From assembly GCA_000004985.1 (NCBI GenBank), contig GG738901.1: a stretch of 64,000 bases of DNA; one strand, given 5' to 3'. Shown here piece after piece: positions 1,334 through 45,883 of the stretch. Positions within the stretch are counted from its first letter, which is position 1, and every line of letters begins with the position of its first letter. The translations under genes and the position numbers were made by a program. The notes below the pieces were generated by a model, which was given only the letters and a program-made list of their open reading frames with translations, was not told the DNA's origin and ran no database searches. This DNA is from Naegleria gruberi (lineage: Eukaryota).

Positions 1334-2489
1334 TATTCAGAGATGATTGTTTTGATTCAATTTTTTGTATTGTTATTGTCAGTTCAGACAAGTATGTTCG
1401 CTATTTATGCAATCCACATCTATTGAACACACTTGCTTTTTCTTTGTCTCATTTCTTCCTCATTTCTTCTTTGGTGCAGTATTTTTAATTCATTCATGAA
1501 TCAATGGACGACTCGATTTCCTCCTCTTTTTCCGCATTTTCATCTTCAACCAATTCTACTCAGAACAATCTGAGAGATTGAACGGGATGGATGTGATTGC
1601 TAAACATCCTCTGAGCATAATAAAAGATGTTTCAAAGTTGTAAAAAGGCAGGAAATCTAGTTGAAACATGTTTGGGAGGATTTTCGAGTCCTACAACAAG
1701 ACCAAATTGGAAGCTGATTTAGATGGCTAGTAAGAAATTGAACAGCCATCCACGAAGAAAAAGTAAAAGGAAACTCCCAATATAAAGGAGTTACTTGTAG
1801 AGGATACTAGTTTTTCTCTGCTATCAAATTTTCACACAATGTTTCATTGTTCGAATCCAATCAGTGCAATGTTAATTTCAAATTATTGAGAGGATATTTT
1901 AACGACCAAGAAAAGAAAATCAACAAGACAGAGTATGTCTCAACCCTTAAAATAAGTAGCTCTACAACTTTCAATAGTGAAGCGAAGGGAATCTACAAAT
2001 TGATTTTCGAGCTGGAATTACTATTTGGATATCAAGTTGAGCTATCCATCACAACTTCATGCCATCAATCTCACCAAATTAAATAAATGTAATAAATTGT
2101 AAACATTTGATGAAAGAGATGTGCTTTTCATCTTTCTAAACTTTAAAAAGTCTTTCAATGTTTGTTCATTACCACTTAAATTAGGCTTTTGAATCAATTG
2201 ATCAAATGCACATCTCCATTCGGAAACGAGAGGATGTATTGTTGACTTGGTCACTTGATGATATCATTGTAAATAATAAACAGGTTCAATCAATTACTGA
2301 TAGTGAATTCTGCTGAGTTTTTGTATCTAGTCAAAATATTTCGTGAACCAATGAGAAGAATTTTTACGCCACGATACCTATTTTTACAAGTGCCTAATAA
2401 AACTGGATACACAAATTTTTTTGCCATTGATGGGCTTTAAATAACGTTCACCTTATTGTGATCAAACGATTTAAAAATATTCAAAAAAA

Positions 2490-3011
2490 ATGTCTGCAAC
2501 AACAACCTTGAAGAGAAGTTATGATTCATTCTCAGCTGAAGACGACAGCCAACTCGACTACAACATGTGCGGATCAAAACCATTCTGTTATGGTTCTTCA
2601 TCATCATCGATAGACTTTTCTAACTCAAGTATTGAATCTACACTCCCTGTCAGACAACCTATAAAGAAGAGAAGGGACACCCTCTTGCAAACCTCATCAG
2701 GCAAAAATAAAACGGCCTATGTGTCGAGAGAAGAAATTAAAAAGGCTCCTGTTGAAGAATTCATTGATTCCTATCTGAAGGAAAAACGTAAATATATCCA
2801 ACAATATTTCCCTGATCAAAATATTGATGCAACTTCATTCACTTACGAAGAGGTTAAACAATTATTACAAGTCAGAGATGAACAACATTTCCAAGAATTG
2901 AACAAGACCGTTCAAGAAAAATTGACAGAACAATTTGAACAATTTACCAAATTCAATCATGATTATATTTCCAAACAATTCAAAGAGTCTGACTTTAGTT
3001 ATACTTCCTAA
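2490..3011 (+). CDS. hypothetical protein, 173 aa, Ser-rich N-terminus with a basic KKRR patch
   Basis: ATG-initiated ORF with codon usage like neighbouring genes. No recognisable domain. Confidence 0.45.
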   Translation: MSATTTLKRSYDSFSAEDDSQLDYNMCGSKPFCYGSSSSSIDFSNSSIESTLPVRQPIKKRRDTLLQTSSGKNKTAYVSREEIKKAPVEEFIDSYLKEKRKYIQQYFPDQNIDATSFTYEEVKQLLQVRDEQHFQELNKTVQEKLTEQFEQFTKFNHDYISKQFKESDFSYTS

Positions 3012-3366
3012 TTATTCAATATATTATTTTCCAAGAGGAAAGCTAAATATTTGTACAACTCTTCGATCAACAACATTTAAAGTTTAGAAAACACTCTGAA
3101 CGTGTAGGGCAGAGTCATGAAAAAACCCAAAAACAAAACTTCTGTACAAAATTCTCTCCAACCTCTCCTTTTATCCCTTTAAAAAAACACTCTATCCTGT
3201 TAAATACCATTTTCCATCACCAATCCATCCAAACTTAACCAACTCCCAATAAATTGAACCAATATTAAAAACAACAACTTTCAGTTACTCATTCCACTTG
3301 TTTTGTTCGCCTTTCCTAATTAATTTGAGCGTTGTAAAAAATTTTAAAAATTAAAAACATAAAAAA

Positions 3367-4825
3367 ATGATTAGCGCTGTTCTTATTCTCAACTCTAGAG
3401 GACACACTCTGATCTCACGTGCCTACAGAGACGATGTTGAAACGTAAGTAATCCACTATCAAGGAATGTTATGGAGTACAAACTTGAAAATCTACAATAA
3501 CAATACAAAATTTAATATTTTTCGCTTCTCTCATCACATAATCAACAACAAAATTATACAAACAAATAATCATCATCAATAACAACAATATCAAATTATC
3601 TAACAATAGTCGTTCAATCTCTAGCGCTTTCAGATCACAAATTTTGGCTGCCAAGATTGCCGATAGATGTCCAGTTAAGACAATTGGAAGTGTTACTTTT
3701 ATGTTCATTCGTCATGAAGAAATGTACTTGCTCGCCGTAACAAAACAAAACGCTAGTGCTGCTCTTGTTTTTGAATTTTTGTATAAATTGATCTTTATTT
3801 TCCAATCTTACTTTGATGGAAAATTCACAGAAGATGCTTTGAAGGAAAACTTTTCACTTGTTTATGAATTGTTGGATGAAATCCTTGACTTTGGTTATCC
3901 ACAAAATTGTGAACCTCAAGTATTGAAGAATATTATTGTACAAGGTGGTATGAAGGATATCAAGCCACACGAACTTGAACAAAGATTGAAGGAAGTTACA
4001 GGAGCAGTTTCTTGGAGAAAGGCCGGAATTGTATATCGTAAGAATGAAGTATTTTTGGATGTTATTGAAGATGTGAATATGTTATTGAGTAACAAGGGTA
4101 CAGTTTTGAGCAGTGACGTCACTGGTCGTATTGTTATGAAGTGTTTGTTGAGTGGTATGCCAGAATGTAAATTTGGTTTGAATGACAAGCTTATGTTACA
4201 ACAAGAAAAGAGAACAGCCAACAAGAAGAGATATAAGGAAATTGATATTGATGACATTACTTTCCATCAATGTGTCAAATTGGGTAAATTTGATAGTGAT
4301 CGTACAATCAGCTTTGTTCCACCTGATGGTGAATTTGAATTGATGAGATATCGTATTACTGATGGTATTGTTCCACCATTCCGTTTACTTTCTCCTATTG
4401 TTCGTGAATTGAGTAAGACAAAGTTGGAAGTTAAGGTTACTATCAAGTCTGTTTTCCATGCTCGTTTGTTTGGTAAGAATGTTGTTGTCAAGATTCCATG
4501 TCCATCCAATACTGCTAAATGTAAGATTCACGTTGCTCAAGGTAAAGCTAAGTATAAGGCTGAAAAGGGTGCTATCGTCTGGACTGTTAAACGTTTCCCT
4601 GGTGATACTGAATTAACTTTGAGTGCCGAAGTTGATTTGATTTCTCAAACTGCTGAAAACAAGAAGTGGTCTAGACCACCTATTGGACTCACCTTCCAAG
4701 TGCCTATGTTCACTGCTTCAGGTTTGCACGTCAGATTCTTGAAAGTTTTCGAAAAATCTAACTATCAAGCTGTCAAATGGGTTAGATATATCACACAAGC
4801 TGGTGTTTATGAATCCAGAATTTAA
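3367..4825 (+). CDS. clathrin-adaptor AP complex mu subunit (AP-1/AP-2 mu family); join(3367..3443,3625..4825), about 426 aa
   Basis: Exon 1 encodes MISAVLILNSRGHTLISRAYRDDVET and ends at a GTAAGT donor at 3444. The acceptor CTAG at 3621-3624 gives the conserved ...DVETAFRSQILAAK continuation. Exon 2 carries mu-homology motifs CKFGLNDK, FHQCVKLGKFDSDRTISFVPPDGEFELMRYR and KWVRYITQAGVYESRI. Confidence 0.85.
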
Positions 4826-31983: not shown

Positions 31984-32394
31984 TATGCTAGATTCTCACA
32001 ACAATAATTGCAATTAGTAATTCGAAAGTGGAAGAATGTCGAACCTAATCACCACTCTTTTTTTTAAAAATGATTTTTGACGGAATAAAAGAAAAGTCAA
32101 GATGTGCGATTGTTTTCGTTCTAAATGACGTTGACTTGACCGTTGGTGGATTGATATTTCCTGAATAATAAGTTTAGAATATTTTGTTCGAAACGTGGGA
32201 GAGAAGGTTTTTGAATAAGGTATGTTTATTATTTTTGAGGTTTTGATAAGGGTACTAGGACAAAGGCTATGTAAAAAGAAGGTGAATAGCGTTCGGGGCA
32301 ACATTATGCGAATGATTCGGTTTAGAATAAATGTTATTGTAAACACATTGTGAGCTTTGCAACTTTACAATGCACTCACTCCATCAATAAAAAA

Positions 32395-32640
32395 AGTGAC
32401 AGAAGTTTACAGGTTGACCTTTTTTCACAGCAATCCAATCTACCTAACTTCTGCCACCCAGTAATATCTATTATATTTCTAATTGTTTGTTTGCCGAATA
32501 GATTGCTGAACAAGTTTCACTGGATGTCATTTCCTATATATTTAAAAAGAATTGTGAGGGAAATATTTTGGTTTTTCTAATTTTTTGATCAGTTTCTTTC
32601 CAAATTGAACTTTCTTAATAACAAGTTTGTCATTCAATAC
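32395..32640 (+). repeat. dispersed ~250-300 bp repeat, copy A (divergent, with an internal replacement)
   Basis: Shares AAAAAAGTGACAGAAG..TTTTCACAGCAATCCAATCT..TTCTGCCACC..AATTGTTTGTTTGC(T/C)GAATAGATTGCTG..ATATTTTGGTTT..TTTCTTTCCAAATTGAACTTTC with copies at about 40365 and 45365, in the same orientation. It lies about 120 bp upstream of the first 5S gene. Confidence 0.6.
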
Positions 32641-32759
32641 AATAATAAGGATTGACATCTAACTAAAATTCATAAAGTAATGTTCATGAGGGCATTACAA
32701 TTTTTATTAAGGAATGTAGGGAGTCAATTATTTATAATGTGAATTTTAAGTAATGGAAT

Positions 32760-32879
32760 GGCTACGGCCATATCACGATGAATGCACCTCATCCAGTCCG
32801 ATTTGAGAAGTTAAGCATCGTCGAGCCACATCAGTACTGAGGTTGGAGACAACTTGGGAACCTGTGGTGCTGTAGTCTT
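32760..32879 (+). rRNA. 5S ribosomal RNA gene (copy 1)
   Basis: GGCTACGGCCATATCACGATGAATGCACCTCATCCAGTCCGATTTGAGAAGTTAAGCATCGTCGAGCCACATCAGTACTGAGGTTGGAGACAACTTGGGAACCTGTGGTGCTGTAGTC matches the universal 5S layout (GGCCATA..., CCGATCTG/AAGTTAAGC, GTACT..GGGAGA.., GGTGCTGTAG). It is followed by a T-run (CTTTT), a Pol III terminator. Confidence 0.9.
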
Positions 32880-33411
32880 TTGCATTTTACCATCCATCTT
32901 CTATTTTTTAACAGAACGAGAAATCATACCAGATGAATCCTCACAGTAAAAAATGGAGAAGGATGGCAATACTGGATTCTTACTAAAACAGAAACTCGTT
33001 AATAATTCAATAATGTTGAAATGAAGTTTCAATTTCGAATTATAAGAATATATGAAACCAAAATTTGCACCAAGCAATACAGCTTGCCAAATGTTCAATA
33101 AATACAATTGGTCCAACCTTTTCAATTCTTCAACAAAACCTTACTGAACCAACAAGATTCTGTCTTCGTTGCCTTCACTGTTCATACAGTCAAAGACTGT
33201 AGCGGGATTGTTGCCATATTCCTGGCAGGCTTCCCGTCCAAAATAATAATTGAAATGTTATATGGCCTTAATATTTATTTATCCAAGTGTGCAATTATAA
33301 ACTTAATCAAGGAACATATGAGGATACTAAGGAAGAATGTAACAGAAATAGTGACATGAAACTCATTTATTTCATAATGTTTCAAAAGAATTGTTTTCCC
33401 GAATTATTCCA

Positions 33412-34528
33412 TTAATTTAATTTAAACATTCCTTGAATTTCCTTGGCAGAGTAGGCTCCTTCTAAAATCTTCTTCTCCTCTTCAGTCAATTGAATTTCCA
33501 ATGCTTGAACATTGAGCTCAACATTAACAGCCTTTGTTGCACCAATTACTGGACTTACAACTCCAGGCTTGGAAAGCAACCAAGCAAGTGCAATTTGAGC
33601 TGGAGAAACGTTTCTCTTCTTGGCAATTTCTGAAACTTTTCTCAAAGTTTCCTTATCACCTTCAGTCAAATTGCCCTTAAATATGGTTTGAACAATATCA
33701 CTATTTTGTCTCTTGGAACCATTTTCAGCAGTTTCGGTTGCATTCTCCTCAGCATTGACAAAATCATGAGCGCGAGCTAACATTCCATTAGAAAGTGGTC
33801 CCCAAGGAGTGAGTGAAACTCCTTGATCAACACACAATGGATTCATTTCTCTCTCCTCTTCTCTATAGATGAGATTGTAGAGATTTTGCATGGAAATGAA
33901 TTTAGTCAATCCCTTCTTCTCAGCATAATGTTGAGCTTTGGCAAATTGCCAAGCAAACATAGTAGAGGCACCAATGTATCTGACCTTGCCAGATTTAACC
34001 AAATCATGGAGAGCTTCCATGGTTTCTTCAATTGGTGTTTGTTCATCCCAACGATGGACAATGTACAAATCAATGTCTGTTTCAATTATTCATTTCAAAT
34101 CACAAGAAGAAATTCAGAAAAAACTTACAATCAAGACCCAATCTTTGCAATGAATCATCAACTGCATGCATAATGTGCTTTCTGGAAAGACCCATGGTAT
34201 TTGGTTTGCCTTGATTACCAACCATAATGAGCTTTTGTTCACCAGAATGATCCAATGGTCCACAAACTTTGGTTGCAACCACAATTTCCTCTCTTGGAAT
34301 GTTGAATTCCTTAATGAACTTGCCCAAAATTCTCTCACTTTCACCATTAGAATACATATCAGCAGTATCAAAGAAATTAATGCCCAAATCCCATGCCTTC
34401 TTCAAAATTCTTAATGATTCCTCTTCTTCCAAAACCCAAGGAATCCACTTGGAAGATCCAAAGCTCATGCAACCCAAACAAAGTTGAGAAACCTTCAAAC
34501 CACTTTCACCCAAATTGACGTATTTCAT
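33412..34528 (-). CDS. aldo-keto reductase family protein; complement(join(33412..34076,34129..34528)), 354 aa
   Basis: MKYVNLGESGLKVSQLCLGCMSFG...FFDTADMYSNGESE, then QRLGLD|YIDLYIVHRWDEQTPIEETMEALHDLVKSGKVRYIGAS spanning a 52-nt GTAAGT..CAG intron. The nucleotide-binding block IGATKAVNVELNVQAL follows. Confidence 0.85.
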
Positions 34529-34892
34529 ATTGTATTGACTTGCTATTGAGAACTGTTAGTTGTGCAGATAGAATTAAATTCAAAAACTAGTTGTGAATTT
34601 GTTTTTTTGTGTTTGGAATGAGAGTTTGGTTTCAAAGCCAAAATTTAAACAGAAAATTTATACTTTTAATTCTGCGCGCATGATTCTGGTTGATTTGTGC
34701 TTATATTTGAACGAGCAGAATTATGATCATTATTGAAAGAAGTGGAACTACAAACACGATTCAAAAGATCCTAATAATCACGAATCTTGAGCTTGGAAAG
34801 ATCATCCATCCAAATGATATTTACACCATGTTGACTTTTTGATGCTGATACCATTACATTTGAAAGTAGTTCACTTTCCAGTTCAAAAAAAA

Positions 34893-36194
34893 ATGAAACC
34901 ACTACTCTTGTTAATTTTATTTTTTACAATATTTTCCACAACAGGCGCAGCAAACTTTGTGATAACTTCCCCACCTTCCTCTCGTCAAGTGTTGAAATGG
35001 CCATTTGCTGCCTGGTCAATTTGGAATTTACCTATAGGAAATAATGCAAGTTATGAATTTGGAAATATTTACTTGCCCAACACTGCAACCATAGAGGCAG
35101 ATCCTGATATTATTGTATTAAATTCATCAAATCCGTTAACACCAATCTATTATTCATCAGCAGCTTGGACTGGGGCTTCACGTTGTCAGGCATCAAGTTC
35201 AACAATTATCACAAAAGTTCCCTTCCCAAGTGATTTTATAGTTGCATCAGATGGAAGTAATTATTCTGGTGCTTTTTTAATGCCAGATAATGTGACAATC
35301 GTACAGACTCAACCAATTTGTCATTGTACTAATAGCACACAAACTTCAAATGTCACAACACTTACAAAAACTATCAGTGTCAGTATTTATGGAGATGGCG
35401 CTTATGGATCCCATGGAGGTTCTGGATTATCATCCATTGGTGGTACACTTAGATTGGGAGAATTAATTCCAGACTCCAATGGAACTGTTCATCCAGTACG
35501 TCATGCTTTGAAAGGTAATCTTTGGGCTGTTTACAATTACTACAGAAATGGAAGTGCTGTTTCGAGCTGTTTCAGGTGGCCAGCAACTGGTTGTGATGGA
35601 TATTTTGCTGATGGTAAATCAGATCAATATGGAGGTACTAATCCATATGTTCGTCCTGGTTCATTGCTCGCTCTTAACACCAGTATTAATATTAACAATT
35701 TGGGATTAAAAACAATTCCAGGATTGGCCATAGCTTGGACATTACAAAATTATGGAATGTATTTGGCAGATGATAGTTATTGGAATGCAGCTGCTTTAGA
35801 AACAGAGATATCTCCAGAGGGAAATTATGTAACACAATTTAAAAAAGCATGGAATATGGATTTTACTTCAAGTACTAATGCTTGGGCAGTTGACGTTCGT
35901 TCCTTATTTAGAATGTTATCAGTTGTTAATAGCTGGAATAAGAATATGTGGTTGAATGTATCATCTTCCAATGGTACATTGGGCGCTGGTGGAGGATTTC
36001 CATTACAGAGCTGGGCACCACCATTTGCAAATGATTCTAATATTGCTACACCTGTTAGTAGCAGTTTCATCCATACGAGCTCTAATTCTCCAAAGAATTC
36101 AACCCTTGCAAACAATCAAAGAAGTATTAATGCATGTAATTTAACAACAATAATATTGGCTATAGTTTTAATTATTTTGTGCATTCAATGGTAA
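34893..36194 (+). CDS. secreted or GPI-anchored-type glycoprotein, hypothetical; signal peptide plus a C-terminal hydrophobic tail
   Basis: The preferred start is the ATG at 34893 (MKPLLLLILFFTIFSTTGAANF); the ORF-track start is an upstream TTG. Many NxS/T sequons, a Gly/Ser-rich core and a C-terminal hydrophobic segment LTTIILAIVLIILCIQW are seen. No family assigned. Confidence 0.6.
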   Translation: MKPLLLLILFFTIFSTTGAANFVITSPPSSRQVLKWPFAAWSIWNLPIGNNASYEFGNIYLPNTATIEADPDIIVLNSSNPLTPIYYSSAAWTGASRCQASSSTIITKVPFPSDFIVASDGSNYSGAFLMPDNVTIVQTQPICHCTNSTQTSNVTTLTKTISVSIYGDGAYGSHGGSGLSSIGGTLRLGELIPDSNGTVHPVRHALKGNLWAVYNYYRNGSAVSSCFRWPATGCDGYFADGKSDQYGGTNPYVRPGSLLALNTSININNLGLKTIPGLAIAWTLQNYGMYLADDSYWNAAALETEISPEGNYVTQFKKAWNMDFTSSTNAWAVDVRSLFRMLSVVNSWNKNMWLNVSSSNGTLGAGGGFPLQSWAPPFANDSNIATPVSSSFIHTSSNSPKNSTLANNQRSINACNLTTIILAIVLIILCIQW

Positions 36195-36328
36195 CTAAAC
36201 AATAAATTGAATGAGCAATGGTTGTTTTGAACAATGTTTTTAGGCGACCTAACTACTAATCTTTCACAGTAGATTAAGATTGCAGAACGATTTATATGAT
36301 TTATATTACGAAACTTACTTACATGGAT

Positions 36329-36448
36329 GGCTACGGCCATATCACGATGAATGCACCTCATCCCGTCCGATTTGAGAAGTTAAGCATCGTCGAGCCACAT
36401 CAGTACTGAGGTTGGAGACAACTTGGGAACCTGTGGTGCTGTAGTCTT
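36329..36448 (+). rRNA. 5S ribosomal RNA gene (copy 2)
   Basis: Identical to copy 1 except for one substitution (CATCCCGTCC vs CATCCAGTCC). Same orientation, 3569 bp downstream, followed by a TTTTCTTTTT terminator-like run. Confidence 0.9.
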
Positions 36449-36671
36449 TTCTTTTTGATCCTTTTCATTGTTTTTTATAAATTGTGAATTAGTATGAATT
36501 AACTTCCAATTTATTCACCACCAATTAGCATTTCTGTGGCACAGATATTTCATACGATAATTACACGCCATAGGTGTTCTAAATCGTGACTATGCCTTTG
36601 TGTCCATATTTCATTTCCGATTTATCAAAACCACAAGCAAAATTCATGGAAATTCTTTTATTCTCTATTGT

Positions 36672-36900
36672 TTATGGCAAACCTGGCCAATTATCAACAT
36701 ATTGAATTTTAAAATCTGGCCAATTATCAACAATTTGAATCTTATAATCAGGCCAATTATCAACAATTTGCCATTTTCCAACACTATCAGGCCAATTATT
36801 GACCTTTTGAACCTTGAGATCTGGCCAATTATCAACAATTTGGACTTTGTAATCTGGCCAATTATCTACGAATTGAATCTTACCATAAATTTTGGCAATT
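36672..36900. repeat. 33-bp tandem repeat array (about 6-7 units)
   Basis: Units TGGCCAATTATCAACAATTTGAAT(C/T)TT(A/T)TAATC(A/T)GGCC... repeat head to tail. The period is 33 nt, equal to 11 codons. Confidence 0.7.
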
Positions 36901-36920
36901 TGATCTTTGGAAAGTGTCAT
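36672..36920 (-). CDS. putative 82-aa tandem-repeat micro-protein with six [IFY]VDNWPD[YLF]K[VI]Q repeats
   Basis: Minus-strand ATG at 36920 in an A-rich context. The translation MTLSKDQIAKIYGKIQFVDNWPDYKVQIVDNWPDLKVQ...YVDNWPGLP is hydrophilic and repeat-structured. The overlapping plus ORF has no ATG and reads as a hydrophobic mirror translation. Confidence 0.35.
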   Translation of the reverse strand: MTLSKDQIAKIYGKIQFVDNWPDYKVQIVDNWPDLKVQKVNNWPDSVGKWQIVDNWPDYKIQIVDNWPDFKIQYVDNWPGLP

Positions 36921-37214
36921 TTCTTGTTTTTTTATTCTGTTGTTTTGATCAACACGGATATCACACCATGTGATGATTTTAAAGGAAAATTAGAAGTGTT
37001 ACATAGCTGTTCGATTTCACAATAGTTCCTGGTTGATCTTCGAGGATTTTCTGACAATTGTAAAACGTATTTGCTTGTTGGAATTGAAGTTACATATTAC
37101 ATTGTAAAATTGGTTCAATCTGATTGTTCATGAATTGCTGCACTGTACAGAATCTAACACCAAAAGTTTTCATTTCAGGGCTGCAAAATAATTTCCTTGA
37201 TCATCTGTAAAAAA

Positions 37215-40200
37215 ATGAACGAATTGCTAACTACTACCAACAACCACAAGAACATTCTCACCTATTTTTATGCACCCATCAATGATTGTACAAATATTAA
37301 TTCATCATCATCAGCATCGGAACCATTTTCCAACAAACATGAAAAACATGAGGATGATGATCTTAATTTAATTGCTAATAAATCGACAAAAGTAGTACGA
37401 GATATTTTCCTATTTGAAGAATGGAGATTAATTGCAAGTTTTTTGACGAGGAAAAATTGTTTTGGAGGCTTGGCAAGTGTAAACAAAACTTCAAGATTGG
37501 CAGTTTTAAGTGTACATTTTATTAGAAATAGTGCAGTGATTAAATCATTTGCACTTCGTTGGATTTGGGCACAAACTATTGATAGTTATTCCGATAAATT
37601 ACCAAATAATAGATTTATTGAAATATTAAAACCACTTCAGGAGGAATATTATGATTTGCACCAATTTATACAAGATCCAAATCAAGAAAAGAGTGAAAAT
37701 TACTTTCCAATACCAAATTATTATTCACGTAATCTTGTAAAGGCAGCATGCAGTGTTGGAAATAACGAAATTATTTTACAATTAATTGAAAAATCATTTT
37801 TATTTGATTTGAGCACAGTAACACCATCAAAGTATTATGATTTGGCATTCTTGAATGGACATTATGATACAGCTGTTGCTTTTGCTAAAACTTTACTTTT
37901 AAGAAATGGAGAATTGGATATTTCCAAATGTATTCCTCAAATAATTTCTCCATTCATTGCACCAATTGAATTTGAAAATCAATATCAAATAGTCTATCAA
38001 TTATTTAACAGATCTCAAACACATTATCAATTGGGAATTAGTAGAATAATTTATGAATTATTACATTCACAACTTTTACAAACATGCCATGAGGAAGCTT
38101 CTAAAATTGGTTGGACTAATTTATTAGATATTGCTCTTTTTAATTTGCATTTCCCACAACTATTAATGCGAAATGATATTGAGTCAGTTCAATTTATTGT
38201 TGGACGTTTATATCAAAATAGAAAAGAAAACAATACTCTTCCATTATTTTCAAATGATTTGGAAAGAATCCTCATACAAATACAATCACTGGATCAAGTT
38301 GATTTTCTTGTATGGTTCTTTGAATATATAGGAAGTTTGGGAGAGTTGACATTATTATCGGATTTAATATTTAACAATTTGAATACTATTTTAACTATTA
38401 ATACTAAATTTTTAGATATTTATTTGAATCAATTTCATGGAAGACATGTTGAAAATGATGAAAAAAGACTCTATGAATATATGGATGGTTTGGATACCAA
38501 CTATCTTAATTTGATATCTCTTTTGGGAATTACTAAAATACCATACGAGAGGATTGCAAAACATTTAAACTCATGTGCACAGTACTATTTGGTTAATTAT
38601 GGTAATGTAATTGTTCAATATTATGAACCAGAAATTGCAACAATCATCTTTAATAACATTCAACTCTTCCTTGATGATACAAAGATTCATCCAAAGAAAC
38701 GTTCGCTCTGTTTAACACCAAGAGTACAAACAGATCTTGTTAATTTATTTCTCAAACAGGAGATTGTAGATTGGAAACTAATTGTAGAATTTATTGAAAA
38801 GAATCCATTCATGTCCAATTTTATGGAAATTATAATTTCAAATGCCTATGATTCGTTTACAAGAACAATATTGGATAGAATTTACTCAACTTCAGACTCT
38901 GAGAATTATTCATCCAGAAGAAGATTTATATTCAAATCCTTTACTAGATATATTGAGAAGGATGTTTATGACTTTTGTGCCTTGTTAATGTTTGCATGCA
39001 CAGTTGAAAAGAGTTTTATGAAAGCTTTGATAGAAAGGAATGAATTTTTAATATCAAAGATTCATGCCTCATTTGAACCATTTCAAAATGTTAGTCAAAT
39101 GATTGAAAGATGGAACGATGGTTCATTTGAATTAATTTCACATGATTTGCCTGTTTTGGACTGTCTTTGTAATAGTTCGTTGAAGGTATTTGTAAATGCT
39201 ATTGGTTCTCTATGGCCACTTTCTAATAATTTCCTCAGTTTGACATTTAAAATTCTCGATGAGTCATATGAACCTATCGTAAGAAATAACATTAATGATA
39301 TTAGAAACATTATCCGACATTTCATTACATCAAGTCATGATATTGATATTATAACATCATACTTCAAAACGACAATTCATCAGGAGGAAATTTTAAATGT
39401 TCTAATGGGATTACCACTATTTACGAAAGATAATTTGTTAAATATTTCAACATCGGTTTTAGCAAGAACAAAATTAACACTTTCAAGTTTAGATACGATT
39501 GTTAACATTATTCACGATCATTTTGATGATGTTCTAGAACAAAAATTCAAAGATTACATTACCATTCCACAAGATAATTTATCACAACTCATTTCTATCA
39601 AATACCATCCAAAATCAATATCATTACTTGAAAGAATTTCATATAGACATTTATTTGAACCTTCATATTTGTCATTCTTTGAACAAATTGAAAGTGTATG
39701 TGGAAGAGGAAGTATGGTTTCATCTGATAGTGCACAAGCCTATTGGAATGCATCCAGTGACCCTTATCTCTTGTTAAATGATAGAGATACTATTATGAAT
39801 CTACTTTCAAAATATGAAACTATTCCTAAAACAAGCAAGTGGAGATCAATTCTTACAGGTCTAGTTAATCATGGATTTATTGATGAACTATTGGAAAGAT
39901 TAGCGGAAAAAGAACATCGTAAACCAATTCTTTTTGAAAATTCTCCTCTTTTCACTTTAACAAGTTCATTTGGAAATATTTCTACTTCTTCTGAATTTCT
40001 ACAAGAAAATAGAAAGAAGGAACAACAATCAGAAAGAGAAAAACAACTCTCCTATGTTCAAGCTCCTCCTCTATTTAATTTTACTTTTGATTTTGGAAAT
40101 TCCAATAATAATAATAATAATAATGGAAACTCATTTATTTTCCTTTCTAAGAATGAATCAAACAGTGGAAATAGTAGTAGTGATGGTTTGGAATTACACT

Positions 40201-40274
40201 CATCTAAAGCACCCCCAACTAATTATTCACACACAACATTACCATTTAATCAATACCTACAGTTCAAGCAATAA
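37215..40274 (+). CDS. large F-box-like hypothetical protein, about 1019 aa
   Basis: The first ATG is at 37215 (MNELLTTT...). An N-terminal F-box-like VVRDIFLFEEWRLIASFLTRKNCFGGLASVNKTSRLAV, a long helical body and a C-terminal Asn/Ser-rich tail. Confidence 0.6.
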   Translation: MNELLTTTNNHKNILTYFYAPINDCTNINSSSSASEPFSNKHEKHEDDDLNLIANKSTKVVRDIFLFEEWRLIASFLTRKNCFGGLASVNKTSRLAVLSVHFIRNSAVIKSFALRWIWAQTIDSYSDKLPNNRFIEILKPLQEEYYDLHQFIQDPNQEKSENYFPIPNYYSRNLVKAACSVGNNEIILQLIEKSFLFDLSTVTPSKYYDLAFLNGHYDTAVAFAKTLLLRNGELDISKCIPQIISPFIAPIEFENQYQIVYQLFNRSQTHYQLGISRIIYELLHSQLLQTCHEEASKIGWTNLLDIALFNLHFPQLLMRNDIESVQFIVGRLYQNRKENNTLPLFSNDLERILIQIQSLDQVDFLVWFFEYIGSLGELTLLSDLIFNNLNTILTINTKFLDIYLNQFHGRHVENDEKRLYEYMDGLDTNYLNLISLLGITKIPYERIAKHLNSCAQYYLVNYGNVIVQYYEPEIATIIFNNIQLFLDDTKIHPKKRSLCLTPRVQTDLVNLFLKQEIVDWKLIVEFIEKNPFMSNFMEIIISNAYDSFTRTILDRIYSTSDSENYSSRRRFIFKSFTRYIEKDVYDFCALLMFACTVEKSFMKALIERNEFLISKIHASFEPFQNVSQMIERWNDGSFELISHDLPVLDCLCNSSLKVFVNAIGSLWPLSNNFLSLTFKILDESYEPIVRNNINDIRNIIRHFITSSHDIDIITSYFKTTIHQEEILNVLMGLPLFTKDNLLNISTSVLARTKLTLSSLDTIVNIIHDHFDDVLEQKFKDYITIPQDNLSQLISIKYHPKSISLLERISYRHLFEPSYLSFFEQIESVCGRGSMVSSDSAQAYWNASSDPYLLLNDRDTIMNLLSKYETIPKTSKWRSILTGLVNHGFIDELLERLAEKEHRKPILFENSPLFTLTSSFGNISTSSEFLQENRKKEQQSEREKQLSYVQAPPLFNFTFDFGNSNNNNNNNGNSFIFLSKNESNSGNSSSDGLELHSSKAPPTNYSHTTLPFNQYLQFKQ

Positions 40275-40364
40275 ATGAATTTATTTTACAAGAGAATAAA
40301 ATGTTGAAGCAACGTATTGCGAATTCTTTTTCCTTCACCATAAAGATAATAGCCGTATTGAGAA

Positions 40365-40612
40365 AAAAGTGACAGAAGGTTCAGGCAGATCTTTTCACAG
40401 CAATCCAATCTTCCTGATTTCTGCCACCCATAGAATACTTGGTATATTTCTTAATTGTTTGTTTGCTGAATAGATTGCTGGTATTATTAGTAAGGATAAC
40501 AGTTCCAATATGTTTTAAAAGAAATGCGAGAGATATATTTTGGTTTATCTTTAATTTTTTTGATCGTTTTCTTTCCAAATTGAACTTTCATTAAGGCTGC
40601 AAAGTTGGTATG
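40365..40612 (+). repeat. dispersed ~250-300 bp repeat, copy B
   Basis: About 90% identical to copy C over about 245 bp. Its 5' portion contains the B-box-like GAAGGTTCAGGCAG. The ORF-track ORF 40381..40578 lies inside it. Confidence 0.65.
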
Positions 40613-40642
40613 CTAAATGGTTTTATTAAATCAATTAAATAC

Positions 40643-41736
40643 TTAGAATAGAAAGGTAATATCAGAAAATTTACCAGATAAACATATACTCCAAAGGTTG
40701 TTGAAATATCTAGTTAATTGATAACCTTTCGAATAGATAAGCAAGCACGCTGTATGTGCAACAATACCTATTGACTGGTAAGTATGGTGTGGGAAATATT
40801 CGGTAATATCAAACTTAGTACTTTTGGATACCATATCGAAGAGCAGGACATTGGGATGATTCTTTGGTACAATGATAAGTGGCTCCTTAAATAACATTAC
40901 ACTCTCAACCTCTGTCCCATCGAATGGATAGATTGAATCTATTGTCCTATTTCCATACAGTTTAAACGTACCATCTTGAGCAGCCACAAGTGTCTTATTC
41001 GAAGAGCAAGAGAATGATCTAATTGGATAATCTAGCGAAACATAAGTAAATGATCCAGGAATTTGACGATCCGACAAGGTTTGTCCACAACTTGATGAGC
41101 CAGCAACCAAAAATCGATGATCTTTCAAATAGGCAACAATGTGAAAATTTCTCCCTTGATATCAACTATATCCTCATCTGATATGAATTGAGAAGTATTC
41201 CAATCTAAACGCGTAATGGTGGCATTTGAAGAGAGCCAATTCTGTCCACTGATTCTAATATTTCTCCTATTTATCACACAACAAGAAAATGAAAAGCAAC
41301 ATGCAATATGAGTAATTTTCTCTTCATCTTTTGGCTCAAAAATCATTCTGACATCCACTCCATTACTATTCCCCAAACAATCATAATCGTTTGTACCCTC
41401 TCCATAGAGCAATGTCTTGCCACCTCTTTTCAAATCCTTCACCAAATAAATACTACAAGATGTATAGCTATCAATAAATGTTACCAGTAACCCCTGATCA
41501 ACTCCAAATTGTTTAATAAATTCACCAGAGAGTTCTTGTTCAAAACCTGCTGGACGATCCTCTGAAGATTTCCAAACTCTTCCCGAATTAAATAAAAGTC
41601 TAATTTTTGGTGTTGGGACTCCATAGGCTATTCCTTGAATAATATGCTCATTCGGAAGATGATCTTGTATTAGGTAGGATTTTAATTTTTCTCCAGCGAG
41701 ATCATCATTAGGTTTGTATGCATAGTAAATGATCAT
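40643..41736 (-). CDS. beta-propeller-like (RCC1-like?) repeat protein with an apparent +1 frameshift near 41125, about 364 aa if corrected
   Basis: Two abutting minus ORFs (41125..41736 and 40643..41128) overlap by 4 nt, with the frame change inside GAAATTTTCACATTG. Both halves have Gly-rich beta-strand repeats (LLYGEGTNDYDCLGNSNGVDV; FLVAGSSSCGQTL). Confidence 0.5.
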
Positions 41737-42123
41737 TTTTTTTGTAATGACTTTTGATTTAATTCTAAGAATGATATAAAGTGCAAAGAGCTAATTGAAA
41801 TTCAATGTTAGAATTAGCATGTGGGATCATCAATAATCATCATATTCATAAGACTTTTCTATTCCAACAGAAAAAGGTCAAAGTTTAGAATAAGTCAAAT
41901 TCCTACTGGAATGGTTCATAATTTTATTACAAAGATCCTCCCTTTTAAAAGGCCGTTCTAGTTCACATTTAAAACATACGTCCTAAACTTGCATTTCTTC
42001 CTCAACAAAATAGTACGCACGCTCAAAAAACAATATTTCAACTCTCATGATAGTACACAATAACAAACCATTAAACAAAAAACACATTACTCTAAAACAC
42101 ATAAAAACAAACACATCAGAACA

Positions 42124-42759
42124 ATGGCTATTAAAGTTTATGGATATGCTGCAGCACTTTGCACTCAACGTGTTTTGGCAACATTGAAGGAAAAACAATT
42201 GGATTACGAATTGATTGTTGTTAATTTGGCCTCTGGAGAACAAAAGCAAGCTCCTTACATTGAAAAACAACCTTTTGGAGTGATTCCAGTTCTTGAAGAT
42301 GGTGAATTCACTATTTATGAATCACGTGCTATCTGTAGATATTTGGAAAACAAGTACAAGACCAGTGGAAATCAACTCATTCCAACCAATCCTGAAGAAT
42401 TGGGTTTGTTCGAACAAGGTGCTTCTATTGAAACTTCCTATTGGGATCCAAATGCTTCTGCTATTTTATTTGAAAAAATTTTCAAGGCCATGAAGGGTTT
42501 AGGTGAAGCCGATGAATCAAGAGTTAAGGTTGCAAGTGAAAAATTAGCTCAATATTTGGATGTTTACGAAAAGATTTTGAGCAAACAAGAATATATTGGT
42601 GGAAATCAATTTACTCTTGCTGATTTGTTCCATCTTCCTTATGGAAGTCTCTTGTTCGTGCCTCAAGTTAATTTTGGTCATTTGTTATTGGAACGTCCAC
42701 ATGTTAAAACTTGGTGGGAAAAGATTACTTCTAGACCTGCATGGCAAGAAGTTGCTTAA
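42124..42759 (+). CDS. glutathione S-transferase (phi/theta-like cytosolic class), 211 aa
   Basis: ATG at 42124. N-terminal thioredoxin-fold motifs IKVYGYAAALCTQRVLATLKEK, FGVIPVLEDGEFTIYESRAICRYL and a C-terminal alpha domain. Single exon. Confidence 0.9.
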   Translation: MAIKVYGYAAALCTQRVLATLKEKQLDYELIVVNLASGEQKQAPYIEKQPFGVIPVLEDGEFTIYESRAICRYLENKYKTSGNQLIPTNPEELGLFEQGASIETSYWDPNASAILFEKIFKAMKGLGEADESRVKVASEKLAQYLDVYEKILSKQEYIGGNQFTLADLFHLPYGSLLFVPQVNFGHLLLERPHVKTWWEKITSRPAWQEVA

Positions 42760-43093
42760 TTGCGTTAAATTTGTAAATTAAAAATATTTTTTGTAAACTT
42801 TACAAAATTTACTCATCGAAAAGTTCCTACACTATACGTAAACATTCAAATCAATTGTTTCTTGAATGCGTCAGTATTTCTCTTTCAAAAAGAACTTGAG
42901 AAATAGGAGAGCACTATCAATTAATTTGTGAATCTTTAAACACCTCTCTGAGTATATTTTCAGCAGAGTATCTCAATGATTCATTTCTCTCTTTTGAAAT
43001 CAAATTGCTAACTGATGAATTTGTAAATTTTCAAAATATCTATAATTTACAAACATTTCCAACTTATTATAATCTTTCAGAATTTTTTGTATC

Positions 43094-45120
43094 TTAATAA
43101 TGTCTTTGTTGACCACTCCAAAAGGTACAACTAGGTCTGAAATCTTCTTGTTGTGCATACATTTGACATCCCTTAAATGCCTCCTTTTCCATAGCTGTAA
43201 TTATTGAAGTATTTGGTAAGACTTTTGTAATTGTTGTAATCCAATTTTCTTCCGGCTTAACAACTATCACAGGAGTATTCGTGGAAACTAGCAATTGGTT
43301 AAGAGATTTTTTAAGCTCCTTTTCTAATGAATTCACAATGCAACTATCTCCATCAAATGATTGATAGTTGGCAACCTTACTAATGGTGATATGTACATCC
43401 TTCTCTATAACAACACAATTTGGAATGTTATGGTAATAAGCTATCATTACATGTCTTGATATGAAGCAAACAGCTGGTACTTGAGTATTGAGAGTCACAT
43501 TAATGAACTGTGCAAAGTTCCTCTTTTTGAGAAGGTAGGGTGGGATTGAAATTAACAGTGGATGCCTTGGTGAGATAACTATTTGATCACAAATTTTGGA
43601 AAAGAATGTTCCAACATTAAGTTCATGGATATGTCGATAATCGTCATCAGGATCATTTAGATAATCAAATACAGACCCTTGATGGGATCCTATTTTACCA
43701 ATCATAGCATCAGAGTAACTGTAAAAATTAAAGCTATAATTGAGGTGTTAATATTAGTGAATGAAATTAAGATTACTTACTGAACACCACTGTTTCTGCC
43801 AACGTATGGTTCCACTGTGTTTGGTGTTTCAACATTGAAAAGGCCATAGGTTGCCATCTCACTTGTAAAATCGATGCAAATAGCTTTGAAAGAATGTTCT
43901 GTGAAATTTCGAACTCTGACATGATGATACCAATCAATAGGTATGCCACTTTCACATAATTTACGGAAAGTGGTGCCATTCCAATATTTTTGATAGACTG
44001 ATTTCCAAATAATTGGTGATCGTGCAAGTTGATTCAAATATCTATTCAATGGTAAAACTATTGAGCATATTTCACTCTCCTTAAGAAAAGAAAATACGGT
44101 GAAGATAATCTCTTCTGGAAGAATTGTCAAATTGTTTTGCTCGATATTCTCTACAAGACCCTCTGGAATAAAGTAGTGTCTATTCAAAAGATATTCAAAG
44201 GTCTTTCCACTATCAACTAGCATCTGTTGTCCAGCTAAATAACTTTCTGAAGCAGCATAAACATCTCCATTCTTTTCCAATCTTTCGCTCTCTTTGAATA
44301 ATTGGCCAATTTTTTGATATGCCTCTGATTGCTCGAATTTTTCATCTCTTGGAATTGATAAAGAATCAACTCTGAGATACATAATTTCAGTTCTCAAAAT
44401 ATACTTGGTTCCTTTTGTTACAGGACAACCTTCATGATAAAAATCCTGATTGAAAAGAGCCAATTGACCCAATGATGGTTTTAAGGTATGCAAGAGACTG
44501 TATTCTTCAAAGTCAGAGTCTGTCTTTGTTGGATCATTGTAAAATCTTGTTTCTCCCCCTTTAAAATCCTGATTCAGATAGATCAGTAATGTGTAAATAC
44601 TTCTCTCATGCTCACTCCTTCTGAATTGACCATCAGTGTGTATTTTGAAATACTCTCCTGGTTCATACTTGCTTAATCTCATCATTTCATTAATTCCACA
44701 AGCTTTCCATTCACCTCTGCTATCCAAACCATAAGGAGTAATCAATTTTCCAATAGCATCTAAATCAATCGTCTCTTTGAGACGTTCAAATATTAGTTTT
44801 GCAAACTCCTTATCAGTAATCAGCTCCCTAGAAGCATTTCTATACTCCTTCGGATATTCATCTTCCAGGTTCTTAAAATCATTACACCTCTTGATCATAT
44901 CATTACACTCTTCACTGGTAAAAAAGTTCGGAATGGCCATCAATCTGTTCATACAAGTCTGATGGATTGGATGTTTTACTTTCGACAGCTTGGTCTCAAA
45001 TGATCGGGATGAAAATTGAACAATTTCATGGACTGGCAAAAGATCGCCTGGCTCAATAATAGAAAACTTTGTCTTGTGGCGAATATCGCGTTCCTTTCCC
45101 CTCGCATGTTTGTTTCCCAT
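43094..45120 (-). CDS. prolyl-4-hydroxylase-like 2OG-Fe(II) oxygenase domain fused to an F-box; complement(join(43094..43718,43781..45120)), about 654 aa
   Basis: ATG at 45120 (MGNKHARG). P4Hc-type motifs SKYEPGEYFKIHTDGQF (HxD), SIYTLLIYLNQDFKGGETRFYN, a distal FYHEG (His) and KYILRTEIMY. A downstream F-box, LTILPEEIIFTVFSFLKESEICSIVLPLNRYLNQLARSPIIWK. One 62-nt GTAAGT..CAG intron near the 3' end. Confidence 0.75.
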
Positions 45121-45364
45121 CTCAAAAAATTTGCGTGGTTTTTACAAGGTGAATTGTTGCTGAATTTTTTTGTTTTGGAAAAAAGTGCGCAAGTGATATG
45201 TGAAGGAACTTTAAAGTACATGATACGGCTAACATTTGTTCAACTAAATACATGTTCTTATCAACATACACTGTTGGTGTTCCGAGTTGAAATCAGATTC
45301 AATAAAATGAGGAAACAGCTGTCCTGTAAAACATTGTAACAACACATTGATTCATGAATAAGAA

Positions 45365-45612
45365 AAAAGTGAGAAAAAAGTGACAGAAGGTTCAGGCAGA
45401 GCTTTTTTCACAGCAATCCAATCTTCCTGATTTCTGCCACCTATAGAATATTTGGTATATTTCTTAATAGTTTGTTTGCTGAATAGATTGCTGGTAATGT
45501 TAGTAAGGATAACATTTCCAATATGTTGTAAAAGAAATATGAGGGATATATTTTGGTTTATCTTTAATTTTTTGGATCGTTTTCTTTCCAAATTGAACTT
45601 TCATTAAGGCTC
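45365..45612 (+). repeat. dispersed ~250-300 bp repeat, copy C
   Basis: About 90% identical to copy B, in the same orientation. It has a short 5' tandem duplication AAAAAAGTGAG/AAAAAAGTGACAG. ORF 45352..45591 lies inside it. Confidence 0.65.
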
Positions 45613-45883
45613 CAAAATTAAACAATTTTCACAATTCAATACTTTCTTCTTAAATTCTAACAAAACATAAAAAATTTATTGATTGTGAACGCAAGTTAAG
45701 ATACACTCTCTTATGTGGACTGTTCAACAACACGGGTGTGGATTGGAATTGCTTTCTATGTGTGAAAAATTCAAGTATTAACCAATACAGACACATATTG
45801 TTGAATACAGCAAAATTTGTTGGACTATTTACAATTGTTTGGGTTGATTAGTTGATAAATTGTTGAGAGTACTACTCTGAATA

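Follow-up and report, generated by a model that had tools for sequence, protein, structure and literature searches.

The 64-kb stretch of DNA analysed here (the window) belongs to Naegleria gruberi NEG-M, three of its ORFs being identical to NCBI proteins of this species. It carries three copies of a short repeat, all in plus orientation: copy A at 32388-32633 (246 bp), copy B at 40359-40606 (248 bp) and copy C at 45370-45619 (250 bp). The number and orientation given in the earlier note were borne out by three search methods (seed-and-extend, blastn with word size 7 and an nhmmer profile); copy A is documented by blastn, alignments and nhmmer (E value 6e-70), and copies B and C by repeat finding, blastn and nhmmer. 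B and C are 93.6% identical over 250 nt (blastn), while A is a diverged copy (A/B 80.2%, A/C 81.7%, over about 235 nt, blastn). The three known copies span 13 kb, with none in the remaining 51 kb of the window, and the invariant cores of 20-22 nt are unmatched elsewhere in the window even at 3 mismatches (chance expectation 0.00-0.04).

Copy A lies upstream of two genes, a minus-strand kinase gene on one side, with its ATG (about 31983) about 400 nt away, and 5S rRNA gene 1 (32760-32878) on the other, 126 nt away, confirming the proximity to a 5S gene remarked upon previously. Each of the window's two 5S genes ends at a T4 run and has a TATA-like box at about -30, and these genes near the repeats are themselves locally duplicated. 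Copy B occupies most of the 368-bp gap between the convergent genes NAEGRDRAFT_81341 and an RCC1-like propeller (85 nt past the stop of the former and 36 nt past that of the latter), and must therefore overlap at least one 3′ UTR. Copy C lies 250 nt upstream of the ATG (45120) of a 2OG-oxygenase/F-box (P4H) gene and 265 nt downstream of the NAEGRDRAFT_81344 stop. B and C do bracket a gene block, as had been claimed: the 4.76 kb in question (40607-45369) hold the propeller (minus strand), a GST gene (plus strand) and, on the minus strand, the P4H gene with a downstream 203-aa exon, the last two together representing XP_002672008.1. These are ordinary host genes in mixed orientation, and the block is devoid of domains typical of gag, RT, integrase or transposase.

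The repeat is a discrete unit with defined boundaries. The 300-nt flanks of the copies align no better than shuffled sequence, so the similarity said to extend into the flanks of A and C was not recovered and the unit measures about 245 bp rather than 300 bp. The internal replacement ascribed to copy A is real: at 32509-32521 (B counterpart 40481-40493), 11/13 positions differ from B and C, a density of 11 differences per 13-nt window reached in 0/20000 random placements. This block aside, the substitutions between A and B/C are spread as under neutral decay (runs of at least 20, P=0.06; longest run, P=0.22). The left edge of copy C carries an 11-nt tandem duplication (GAAAAAAGTGA x2) that is missing from a sister strain. 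Towards the 5′ end of the unit, as read on the minus strand, sits an invariant 22-nt block, GAAAGTTCAATTTGGAAAGAAA (minus strand; A 32593-32614, B 40568-40589, C 45581-45602), and a conserved stretch that we read as TATA-like, AAACCAAAATATATCT (minus strand; A 32559-32574, B 40531-40546, C 45544-45559), precedes by about 30 nt a 150-nt body free of T-runs.

The unit is non-coding. As the earlier note had argued, no reading frame is conserved: substitutions show no codon periodicity and the stop-free frames vary by copy. A six-frame chimeric query of the repeat returned zero proteins at E<=1 among 5.8 billion, and searches of two N. fowleri loci, of metagenome and viral contigs and of predicted proteins turned up no homologue. 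The Rfam and RNA-folding checks that had been suggested gave a divided answer. For the unit as a whole they were negative, with every family scoring below half of its gathering threshold on both strands and with folding on par with shuffles (z +1.29 to -0.75); a hairpin at the left end, in contrast, stood out (z about -4) as the sole significant structural feature, and covariation among the copies (RNAalifold) was essentially absent outside it.

This hairpin forms on the minus strand in copies A (32396-32458, 63 nt; -21.6 kcal/mol, z -4.21), B (40368-40428, 61 nt; -23.4 kcal/mol, z -4.03) and C (45379-45441, 63 nt; -23.3 kcal/mol, z -4.17), its stability being matched by none of 200 shuffles in any of the three. 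The plus-strand versions are weaker by 5-7 kcal/mol (B -16.5, z -2.03; C -17.3, z -2.20) because several G.U pairs turn into A.C mismatches on that strand. The hairpins of A and B differ by 7 substitutions and 3 inserted bases, yet are of equivalent stability (-21.6 versus -21.8 kcal/mol, the latter being the value for B in this comparison), whereas an equal number of random changes gave -14.0 +/- 3.6 kcal/mol; the retention in A has P=0.03, in one among several tests tried and on a set of just three or four related sequences. Two of the changes, C-G to U.G and U-A to U.G, keep pairing on the minus strand only. Within the loop of about 19-20 nt, the core AGATTGGATTGCTGTGAAAA (minus strand; A 32422-32441, B 40392-40411, C 45405-45424) is identical in all four known copies, that of the sister strain included, and the loop holds GATTGG, an inverted CCAAT motif. 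The hairpin is followed on the minus strand by a run of six or seven T (A, T7 at 32389-32395; B, T6 at 40363-40368; C, T6 at 45374-45379), placed exactly at the boundary of the unit in every copy.

The fourth copy is found in a 5.4-kb metagenome contig (L001) from a strain 96-99% identical, in which the gene order is X-GST-203aa-P4H-single repeat-propeller. The contig fuses the left flank of C to the right flank of B, making it a circular permutation of the B-C block; the gap from the propeller stop to the start of its single repeat is 37 nt, and 226 nt separate the end of this repeat from the P4H ATG. The right 85 columns of this repeat are identical to B, and its left part is slightly closer to C. 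A segment at 41738-41923, flanked by the propeller ATG and the region upstream of GST, has no counterpart in the contig and marks the novel joint of the permuted order. Indels between the strains take up 2 columns of 246 in the repeat, versus 91 across some 800 nt of intergenic DNA nearby, a sign of constraint, while the substitution divergence of the repeat (2.4-4.4%) falls inside the intergenic range (2.1-5.1%).

We tentatively favour, as a possible rather than a probable reading, that the repeat is a lineage-specific small-RNA or structured unit read from the minus strand and locally duplicated. In minus-strand order, the 22-nt block, the TATA-like stretch, the body of about 150 nt, the hairpin and the T6-7 run would together form a small stand-alone transcription unit, either an orphan gene for a structured small RNA or such a gene copy in decay, with a putative transcript that would end at the hairpin plus oligo-U. 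Besides the T6-7 run, the minus strand contains a single stretch of four or more T, near position 87, which precedes the proposed start. We propose GAAAGTTCAATTTGGAAAGAAA as an upstream promoter-type element, and AAACCAAAATATATCT may act in the promoter by its likeness to the 5S TATA-like box at about -30; this promoter reading leans on short AT-rich motifs. The unit would have multiplied locally by DNA-level duplication. Its recurrence with the same boundaries in three unrelated contexts, in the neighbourhood of two Pol III genes (the 5S pair), supports this reading, under which the repeat would be transcribed. Type-3 Pol III genes such as U6 and 7SK likewise have upstream external promoters and an oligo-T end, an arrangement that the minus strand of the repeat resembles from upstream block to T6-7; unlike them, the repeat has no Rfam sequence or structure match and differs by 20% between paralogues. 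We know of no Naegleria PSE for comparison. Of the interpretation offered earlier, the discrete, non-coding and dispersed nature of the unit is supported and the small-RNA gene is a possible reading, but its plus-strand Pol III orientation is not supported.

The repeat could instead be a passive low-copy repeat, functionless intergenic DNA produced by segmental duplication or rearrangement and now only a substrate for non-allelic recombination, which we consider somewhat unlikely. Nearly neutral divergence, the confinement of all known copies to 13 kb of the window in one orientation and the tie of the B/C pair to the rearrangement in the sister-strain contig would fit such an origin, as would the reported extreme poverty of Naegleria genomes in transposable elements (0.13-0.28%; bioRxiv 10.64898/2026.06.24.734286). 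However, two duplications (A versus the B/C ancestor, and B versus C) share their left and right boundaries within 4 and 12 nt, which is unexpected for random segmental breakpoints in independent events; moreover, the boundary falls at the hairpin plus T-run, and hairpin stability is kept in a copy 20% diverged. Sharp ends between unrelated flanks and the near-neutral divergence are also what a decayed non-autonomous mobile element would leave (an old MITE, a hairpin-bearing rolling-circle type or a solo LTR), its hallmarks eroded or scrambled by recombination. A terminal or subterminal hairpin without terminal inverted repeats or duplications recalls hairpin-dependent elements, of which the architecture of the repeat is reminiscent, and copies B and C begin with TG and end with CA. 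We nonetheless judge this origin rather unlikely, as none of the SINE, LTR or MITE hallmarks tested on the repeat was found. Reading the flanks directly revealed no target-site duplication at any copy or across the recombinant pairs B-left/C-right and C-left/B-right; by eye there are no Helitron-type 5′-TC or 3′-CTRR ends; and the inverted repeat near the ends is a single 8/9 match (GAAGGTTCA/TGAACTTTC) set 10-12 nt in from each boundary. The DNA between and next to the copies encodes no transposase, RT or integrase, and the copies are clustered, not scattered, in a host very poor in transposable elements. A solo LTR, as suggested in the earlier note, or an LTR pair would share with B and C the length of about 250 bp, the direct repetition about 5 kb apart and the TG...CA termini; these termini fit the B/C alignment only and are lacking in A, the interval holds host genes (RCC1-like, GST and 2OG-oxygenase/F-box) without gag/pol, the edges lack duplications, and the sister strain has the same genes with one repeat.

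Copy B overlaps a 3′ UTR by necessity, 36 nt past the propeller stop, C and A lie 250 and about 400 nt upstream of ATGs, and the sister-strain copy stands between the propeller stop (37 nt) and the P4H ATG (226 nt). These positions, with the inverted CCAAT motif of the loop, would suit a cis-acting module of minus-strand Pol II genes, i.e. a shared 3′-UTR/terminator and/or upstream promoter that travelled or was co-opted. The contexts differ, though, with B lying 3′ of two convergent genes and having no downstream minus-strand gene, and with a 5S gene separating A from the closest minus-strand gene upstream; the genes that it would serve are not related to one another, and CCAAT and TATA-like motifs are so short that they count for little. 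We regard this role as improbable. Least credible, to the point of being very improbable, is a plus-strand Pol III product (a small RNA, SINE, SL-RNA or Class-I-like RNA). Its appeal lay in the nearby 5S gene, the T-rich right end, a weak Rfam match to Dicty_Class_I_RNA (15.1 bits) and the B-box-like GGTTCAGGCAG; this last motif occurs only in B and C, A having AGTTTACAGGTTG, and an A box is missing. Furthermore, a T4-T6 run lies at position 33-34 of all three copies and, since the local 5S genes end at T4, a Pol III stop would be expected after about 35 nt; the most conserved block, of 22 nt, falls beyond a plus-strand T7 run. The repeat is short, non-coding and multi-copy like tRNA-derived SINEs, with a B-box-like GGTTC in two copies, but only three clustered copies are known, and neither 3′ end has a poly(A), A-rich or simple-repeat tail, which, like the missing target-site duplications, speaks against the SINE reading. 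The SL-RNA idea is not supported by the 5′ 40 nt, where A is unlike B/C, variation that a spliced-leader exon would not be expected to tolerate. As for dictyostelid Class I RNAs (RF01414), a hairpin of about 60 nt and a conserved ACAGCAA-containing single-stranded motif are points of resemblance; yet the match (E=6) falls short of the family's gathering score (41.5), the repeat is conserved over 245 nt where Class I RNAs span 42-65 nt, and there is no DUSE-like element at about -60, where Class I genes require one (PMC7919456). These RNAs are reported to be restricted to Dictyostelia (PMC7919456), and Naegleria is a heterolobosean.

The circularly permuted block in L001 points to recombination between repeat copies, for which the copies would serve as homologous substrates; the block may have arisen through a circular intermediate inserted via the repeat, or by unequal exchange between repeats. 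The arrangement resembles low-copy-repeat NAHR or Campbell-type integration, in that direct repeats of ~250 bp (93.6%) bracket a 4.8-kb block and a single repeat in the related strain joins both inner flanks. The permuted order is known from one 5.4-kb metagenome contig, which could be a mis-assembly at the repeat. Neither a circular form nor an empty site (NAEGRDRAFT_81341-repeat-NAEGRDRAFT_81344) was observed, and neighbour X beside GST differs from the arrangement in the window. The propeller gene of the window also differs from that of the sister strain in carrying a 1-nt frameshift.

Three copies of the repeat were recovered from the 64-kb window, all in one orientation, by seed-and-extend matching, blastn (word size 7) and an nhmmer profile alike, which confirms the three-copy, same-orientation element described in the earlier note. 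Copies B (40359–40606) and C (45370–45619) are 93.6 % identical over 250 nt, where about 90 % had been estimated, while copy A (32388–32633) shares 80.2 % identity with B and 81.7 % with C over about 235 nt. According to the nhmmer profile, the three copies fall within 13 kb of the window, against none in the other 51 kb, and the invariant 20–22-nt blocks have no other match in the window even at three mismatches (approximately zero expected by chance). Similarity flanking A and C had suggested a unit of about 300 bp; however, alignments of the 300-nt flanks score no higher than those of shuffles, indicating a unit of about 245 bp with sharp ends. The internal replacement noticed in A was also recovered, with 11 of 13 positions differing at 32509–32521 (none of 20000 random placements was equally dense), and the substitutions elsewhere seem evenly distributed. 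Copy C has an 11-nt tandem duplication, GAAAAAAGTGA GAAAAAAGTGA, at its left edge (45352–45379); the duplication is not present in copy A, copy B or the sister strain discussed below.

Copy A is flanked on one side by the 5′ end (ATG at about 31983) of a kinase gene on the minus strand and on the other by the first 5S gene, 126 nt away, in keeping with the proximity already reported. Two convergent genes are separated by 368 bp, most of which is taken up by copy B, and copy C is positioned between the stop of NAEGRDRAFT_81344 (a 767-aa ORF in the window) and the start of the 2OG-oxygenase/F-box gene. A 1019-aa ORF of the window has 100 % identity to NAEGRDRAFT_81341, which precedes copy B. The block between B and C codes for an RCC1-like propeller, a GST and a 2OG-oxygenase/F-box protein. 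The last of these is XP_002672008.1 (659 aa; 43094–45120, minus strand), a model in which a 447-aa 2OG-oxygenase/F-box ORF is spliced through a short intron to a 203-aa downstream ORF. As this model merges two ORFs, B and C do bracket a gene block as claimed, but one of three gene models rather than four genes. A 65 %-identical paralogue of XP_002672008.1 is found on another N. gruberi scaffold (P0002). The matches to XP_002672008.1, NAEGRDRAFT_81341 and NAEGRDRAFT_81344 assign the window to N. gruberi NEG-M or to a strain identical with it.

The repeat is non-coding. Open frames are not the same among the copies, substitutions counted by alignment position modulo 3 (15/11/15 and 11/15/14) reveal no codon periodicity, and a chimeric six-frame ORF query of the repeat had no match at E≤1 in a set of 5.8 billion proteins. 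A protein-coding gene or pseudogene fragment was rejected on these grounds, upholding the earlier non-coding call. Membership of a known RNA family was judged by whether a score reached the family gathering threshold (Rfam 15; snRNA, snoRNA, SRP, RNase P/MRP, miRNA and others). At this threshold the window yielded nothing beyond its two 5S genes, and scanning each copy by E value gave a best score of 21.7 bits against the 43 needed (E values 0.8–9), the best match being a Drosophila C/D snoRNA model whose C box is unmatched; known Rfam families were therefore rejected. Class I RNAs are dictyostelid RNAs defined by a 6-bp terminal stem, an 11-nt motif and a DUSE about 60 nt upstream (PMC7919456). 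The Dictyostelid Class I RNA model (RF01414) scored 15.1 bits against a gathering threshold of 41.5, with two non-canonical stem pairs; no DUSE is common to the copies and the host is Naegleria, and this class was rejected as well. Base composition, poly-N/Q proteins and this weak hit had pointed to a dictyostelid origin, which was discarded when protein matches placed the window in N. gruberi NEG-M. By eye, no U5 loop, Sm site, H/ACA or C/D box, RNase P CR-I or telomerase template motif is conserved in all three copies.

We then compared the unit with the main classes of mobile element. The copies of a SINE would be expected to share an internal promoter for Pol III (A plus B boxes, or a head derived from 5S or 7SL), to end 3′ in an A-rich stretch or a simple repeat, to lie between target-site duplications, and to be numerous and scattered across the genome. 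The B-box-like motif reported previously is present in B and C (GGTTCAGGCAG) but missing in A, where its counterpart is AGTTTACAGGTTG; there is no A box upstream of it within the unit, no similarity to the 5S genes (blastn) and no tRNA-like sequence (ARAGORN). The 3′ end of the unit reads ...GAACTTTCATTAAGG on the plus strand and consists of oligo-T, not poly(A), on the minus strand, and none of the three copies is flanked by direct repeats. A SINE was rejected given the absence of the motif in A and of an A box, tail or target-site duplication, and is further disfavoured by a plus-strand T4–T6 run at position 33–34 in all three copies, which should terminate Pol III transcription, given that T4 is where the 5S genes of this region end. 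LTRs would be expected as a pair enclosing gag/pol (reverse transcriptase, integrase) or its remnants, with a PBS and PPT beside them, TG...CA termini and a 4–6-bp target-site duplication. Pfam detected only RCC1-like, GST, 2OG-FeII oxygenase and F-box domains between B and C, with no transposon-type domain, and the enclosed genes, which do not all point the same way, encode proteins identical to annotated host proteins. The TG...CA ends hold at the B/C alignment ends but not in copy A, and neither the flanks of B (CGTAT/AAGTT) nor those of C (AAAAG/AAATT) match within the pair. With host genes inside, no edge duplications and no TG/CA in A, an LTR pair or solo LTR was rejected. MITEs and other DNA transposon derivatives, recognized by inverted repeats at their extreme termini and by target-site duplications, were rejected because neither is seen; the sole inverted match near the ends (GAAGGTTCA/TGAACTTTC, 8/9) lies 10–12 nt inside both boundaries and is at chance level for AT-rich DNA. 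Inspection by eye revealed no Helitron-type ends.

The clearest internal structure is a hairpin formed by the leftmost 61–63 nt of each copy. On the minus strand the three copies reach −21.6 to −23.4 kcal/mol with z of −4.0 to −4.2, a stability matched by none of 200 shuffles; the plus-strand hairpin is weaker by 5–7 kcal/mol (z −2.0 to −4.2), several minus-strand G.U pairs becoming A.C mismatches. Copies A and B differ here by seven substitutions and three inserted bases, yet stability is kept, whereas an equal number of random changes gives −14.0±3.6 kcal/mol (P=0.03 for the minus strand, 0.10 for the plus strand). Two of these changes, C-G to U.G and U-A to U.G, retain pairing on the minus strand only, and the loop core, AGATTGGATTGCTGTGAAAA, is invariant in four of four known copies. 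Read on the minus strand, the hairpin is directly followed by T6–7, exactly where similarity between the copies stops. The only further minus-strand run of at least four T residues is at about position 87, upstream of which are a conserved AAACCAAAATAT(A/T)T stretch and an invariant 22-nt block, GAAAGTTCAATTTGGAAAGAAA; the GAAAGTTCAATTTGG block of the unit is a candidate promoter-type element. Combined, these features give a minus-strand order in which the conserved block comes first, followed by the TATA-like stretch, some 150 nt of body, the hairpin and oligo-T, the layout that a small gene with an external promoter would be predicted to have. Within the hairpin loop, CAGCAATC (40399–40406, plus strand) is the exact reverse complement of GATTGCTG (40474–40481, plus strand), about 75 nt downstream, and this 8-bp internal inverted repeat is conserved at the equivalent positions of A and C; it is about chance level for 250 nt, but the two halves could form a long-range helix or be bound as a paired site.

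The repeat itself is confirmed. Our preferred reading, though held at less than even confidence, is a lineage-specific minus-strand small-RNA or structured unit, as the hairpin and the order of minus-strand features suggest, which may have been locally duplicated and would now serve as a recombination substrate. Counting against a small gene of this kind, folding of the whole unit is no better than that of shuffles, an alignment of only four sequences displays no covariation outside the hairpin, substitutions other than those of the replaced block seem evenly distributed, and the substitution rate between strains (below) is that of intergenic DNA. A low-copy repeat with no function, to which the stability retained in the diverged hairpin runs counter, has perhaps one chance in a handful or slightly better. 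An eroded mobile element would fit a discrete unit with TG...CA at the B/C ends, but the lack of target-site duplications and transposon domains makes it somewhat less probable again. It is improbable that the unit is a UTR or promoter module: all copies adjoin genes, B filling most of a convergent gap, while their neighbours are gene starts in one case and gene ends in another. Least credible by far is a plus-strand Pol III, SINE, SL-RNA or Class-I-like RNA. The SINE, LTR and plus-strand Pol III identities raised earlier are not supported.

Evidence that the repeats may have taken part in rearrangement came from the single related sequence recovered, L001, a 5358-bp ENA metagenome contig (ERZ929261) from a strain 96–99 % identical to the window. 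Positions 1–1380 of L001 match window 41737–40361 (98.8 % identity) and positions 1133–4819 match window 45619–41942 (95.6 % identity), the two matches overlapping in the repeat only. In window orientation, L001 reads X (about 480 nt of unrelated sequence) – GST – 203-aa exon – 2OG-oxygenase/F-box ORF – one repeat – propeller, against 81341 – B – propeller – GST – 203-aa exon – 2OG-oxygenase/F-box ORF – C – 81344 in the window. The left flank of C is thus joined to the right flank of B, meaning that the bracketed block is circularly permuted. Window 41738–41923 has no counterpart in L001, and X, which adjoins the GST gene, looks coding, with an 83-aa ORF for which no homologue was found. A Logan contig from the same run (ERR1078381; L024, 1010 bp) covers the 203-aa exon only. 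Between strains, the substitution rate of the repeat (2.4–4.4 %) lies in the intergenic range (2.1–5.1 %), with indels in 2 of 246 columns of the repeat versus 91 in about 800 intergenic columns.

An alternative arrangement with its breakpoints inside repeats is the mark of recombination between low-copy repeats, here observed in one metagenome contig, and homologous recombination between pre-existing copies would be the simplest history. Mis-assembly of L001 at the repeat could produce the same junction, but is less likely because B and C have no identical stretch near the assembler k-mer of 127. In the L001 repeat, the right 85 alignment columns are identical to B and the left is marginally nearer C; B-like and C-like sites form 6 runs where 6.1 are expected (runs test), and a left/right 2×2 table gives a Fisher P of about 0.06. 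This pattern fits a B/C crossover without proving it, and is also compatible with an ancestral-like single copy. As candidate routes, a circle bearing the block may have inserted by a Campbell-type event at a repeat lying between 81341 and 81344, the opposite event may have excised it, or unequal exchange may have occurred. A homologue search with 81341, aimed at an empty site in the sister strain, brought up the reference protein and one distant homologue from N. fowleri, and nothing else.

Naegleria keeps its rDNA on an extrachromosomal circle. It is conceivable, if doubtful, that both ideas hold jointly, i.e. that the unit is an undescribed Naegleria small-RNA gene and that its copies act as att-like sites cycling the 4.8-kb cassette as a circle. 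The RNA would then be about 150 nt, transcribed from the minus strand under an external TATA-type promoter and ending with the invariant-loop hairpin followed by oligo-U, and a cassette of ordinary host genes could exit and re-enter the chromosome.

Further copies were sought more widely. No metagenome contig contains an exact 20-mer from the repeat; a 19-mer gave 22 metagenome-contig matches, all attributable to chance, with similarity that runs no further than about 25 nt, or 41 nt at 80 %. Two scans of viral contigs gave no matches, and the nhmmer profile and a hairpin covariance model, run on the window, L001 and two N. fowleri loci, recovered known copies only; the N. fowleri loci, which are not syntenic, hold no homologue of the repeat. 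Literature searches on Naegleria repeats and small RNAs turned up nothing specific. Naegleria genomes are reported to be almost repeat-free, so any discrete dispersed unit is worth a look. If transcribed, this one would be an orphan structured RNA in a lineage for which the catalogue of non-coding RNAs is still very thin. The structural point is clearer: two 250-bp direct repeats lie on either side of a host block of four ORFs, and this block appears in circularly permuted order in a 96–99 % identical strain, a concrete case of repeat-mediated gene-order change in the N. gruberi species complex, possibly via a circular intermediate. Should neither idea be true, the unit would be an ordinary low-copy repeat of little consequence.

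Several other features of the region were recorded. The propeller gene (40643–41736, minus strand) is split in the window into two overlapping ORFs of 203 and 161 aa (site 41125–41128), while L001 encodes a single 364-aa ORF owing to one additional base, implying that the reference copy has either a frameshift (pseudogene) or a sequencing error. ARAGORN predicted no tRNA genes in the window. The two chromosomal 5S rRNA genes identified with Rfam (32760–32878 and 36329–36447) are 3.6 kb apart in the same orientation, with 118 of 119 positions identical; both have a TATA-like box (TTTATAAT/TTTATATT) at about −30 and a T4 terminator, and their remaining flanks are not alignable with each other. 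The pair is a local duplication with conservation limited to the functional parts. Just downstream of the second 5S gene is a small 82-aa ORF (36672–36920, minus strand) with no Pfam match, within which a 33-nt tandem repeat of six to seven units (36652–36908) encodes an 11-residue repeat resembling QIVDNWPDYKV.
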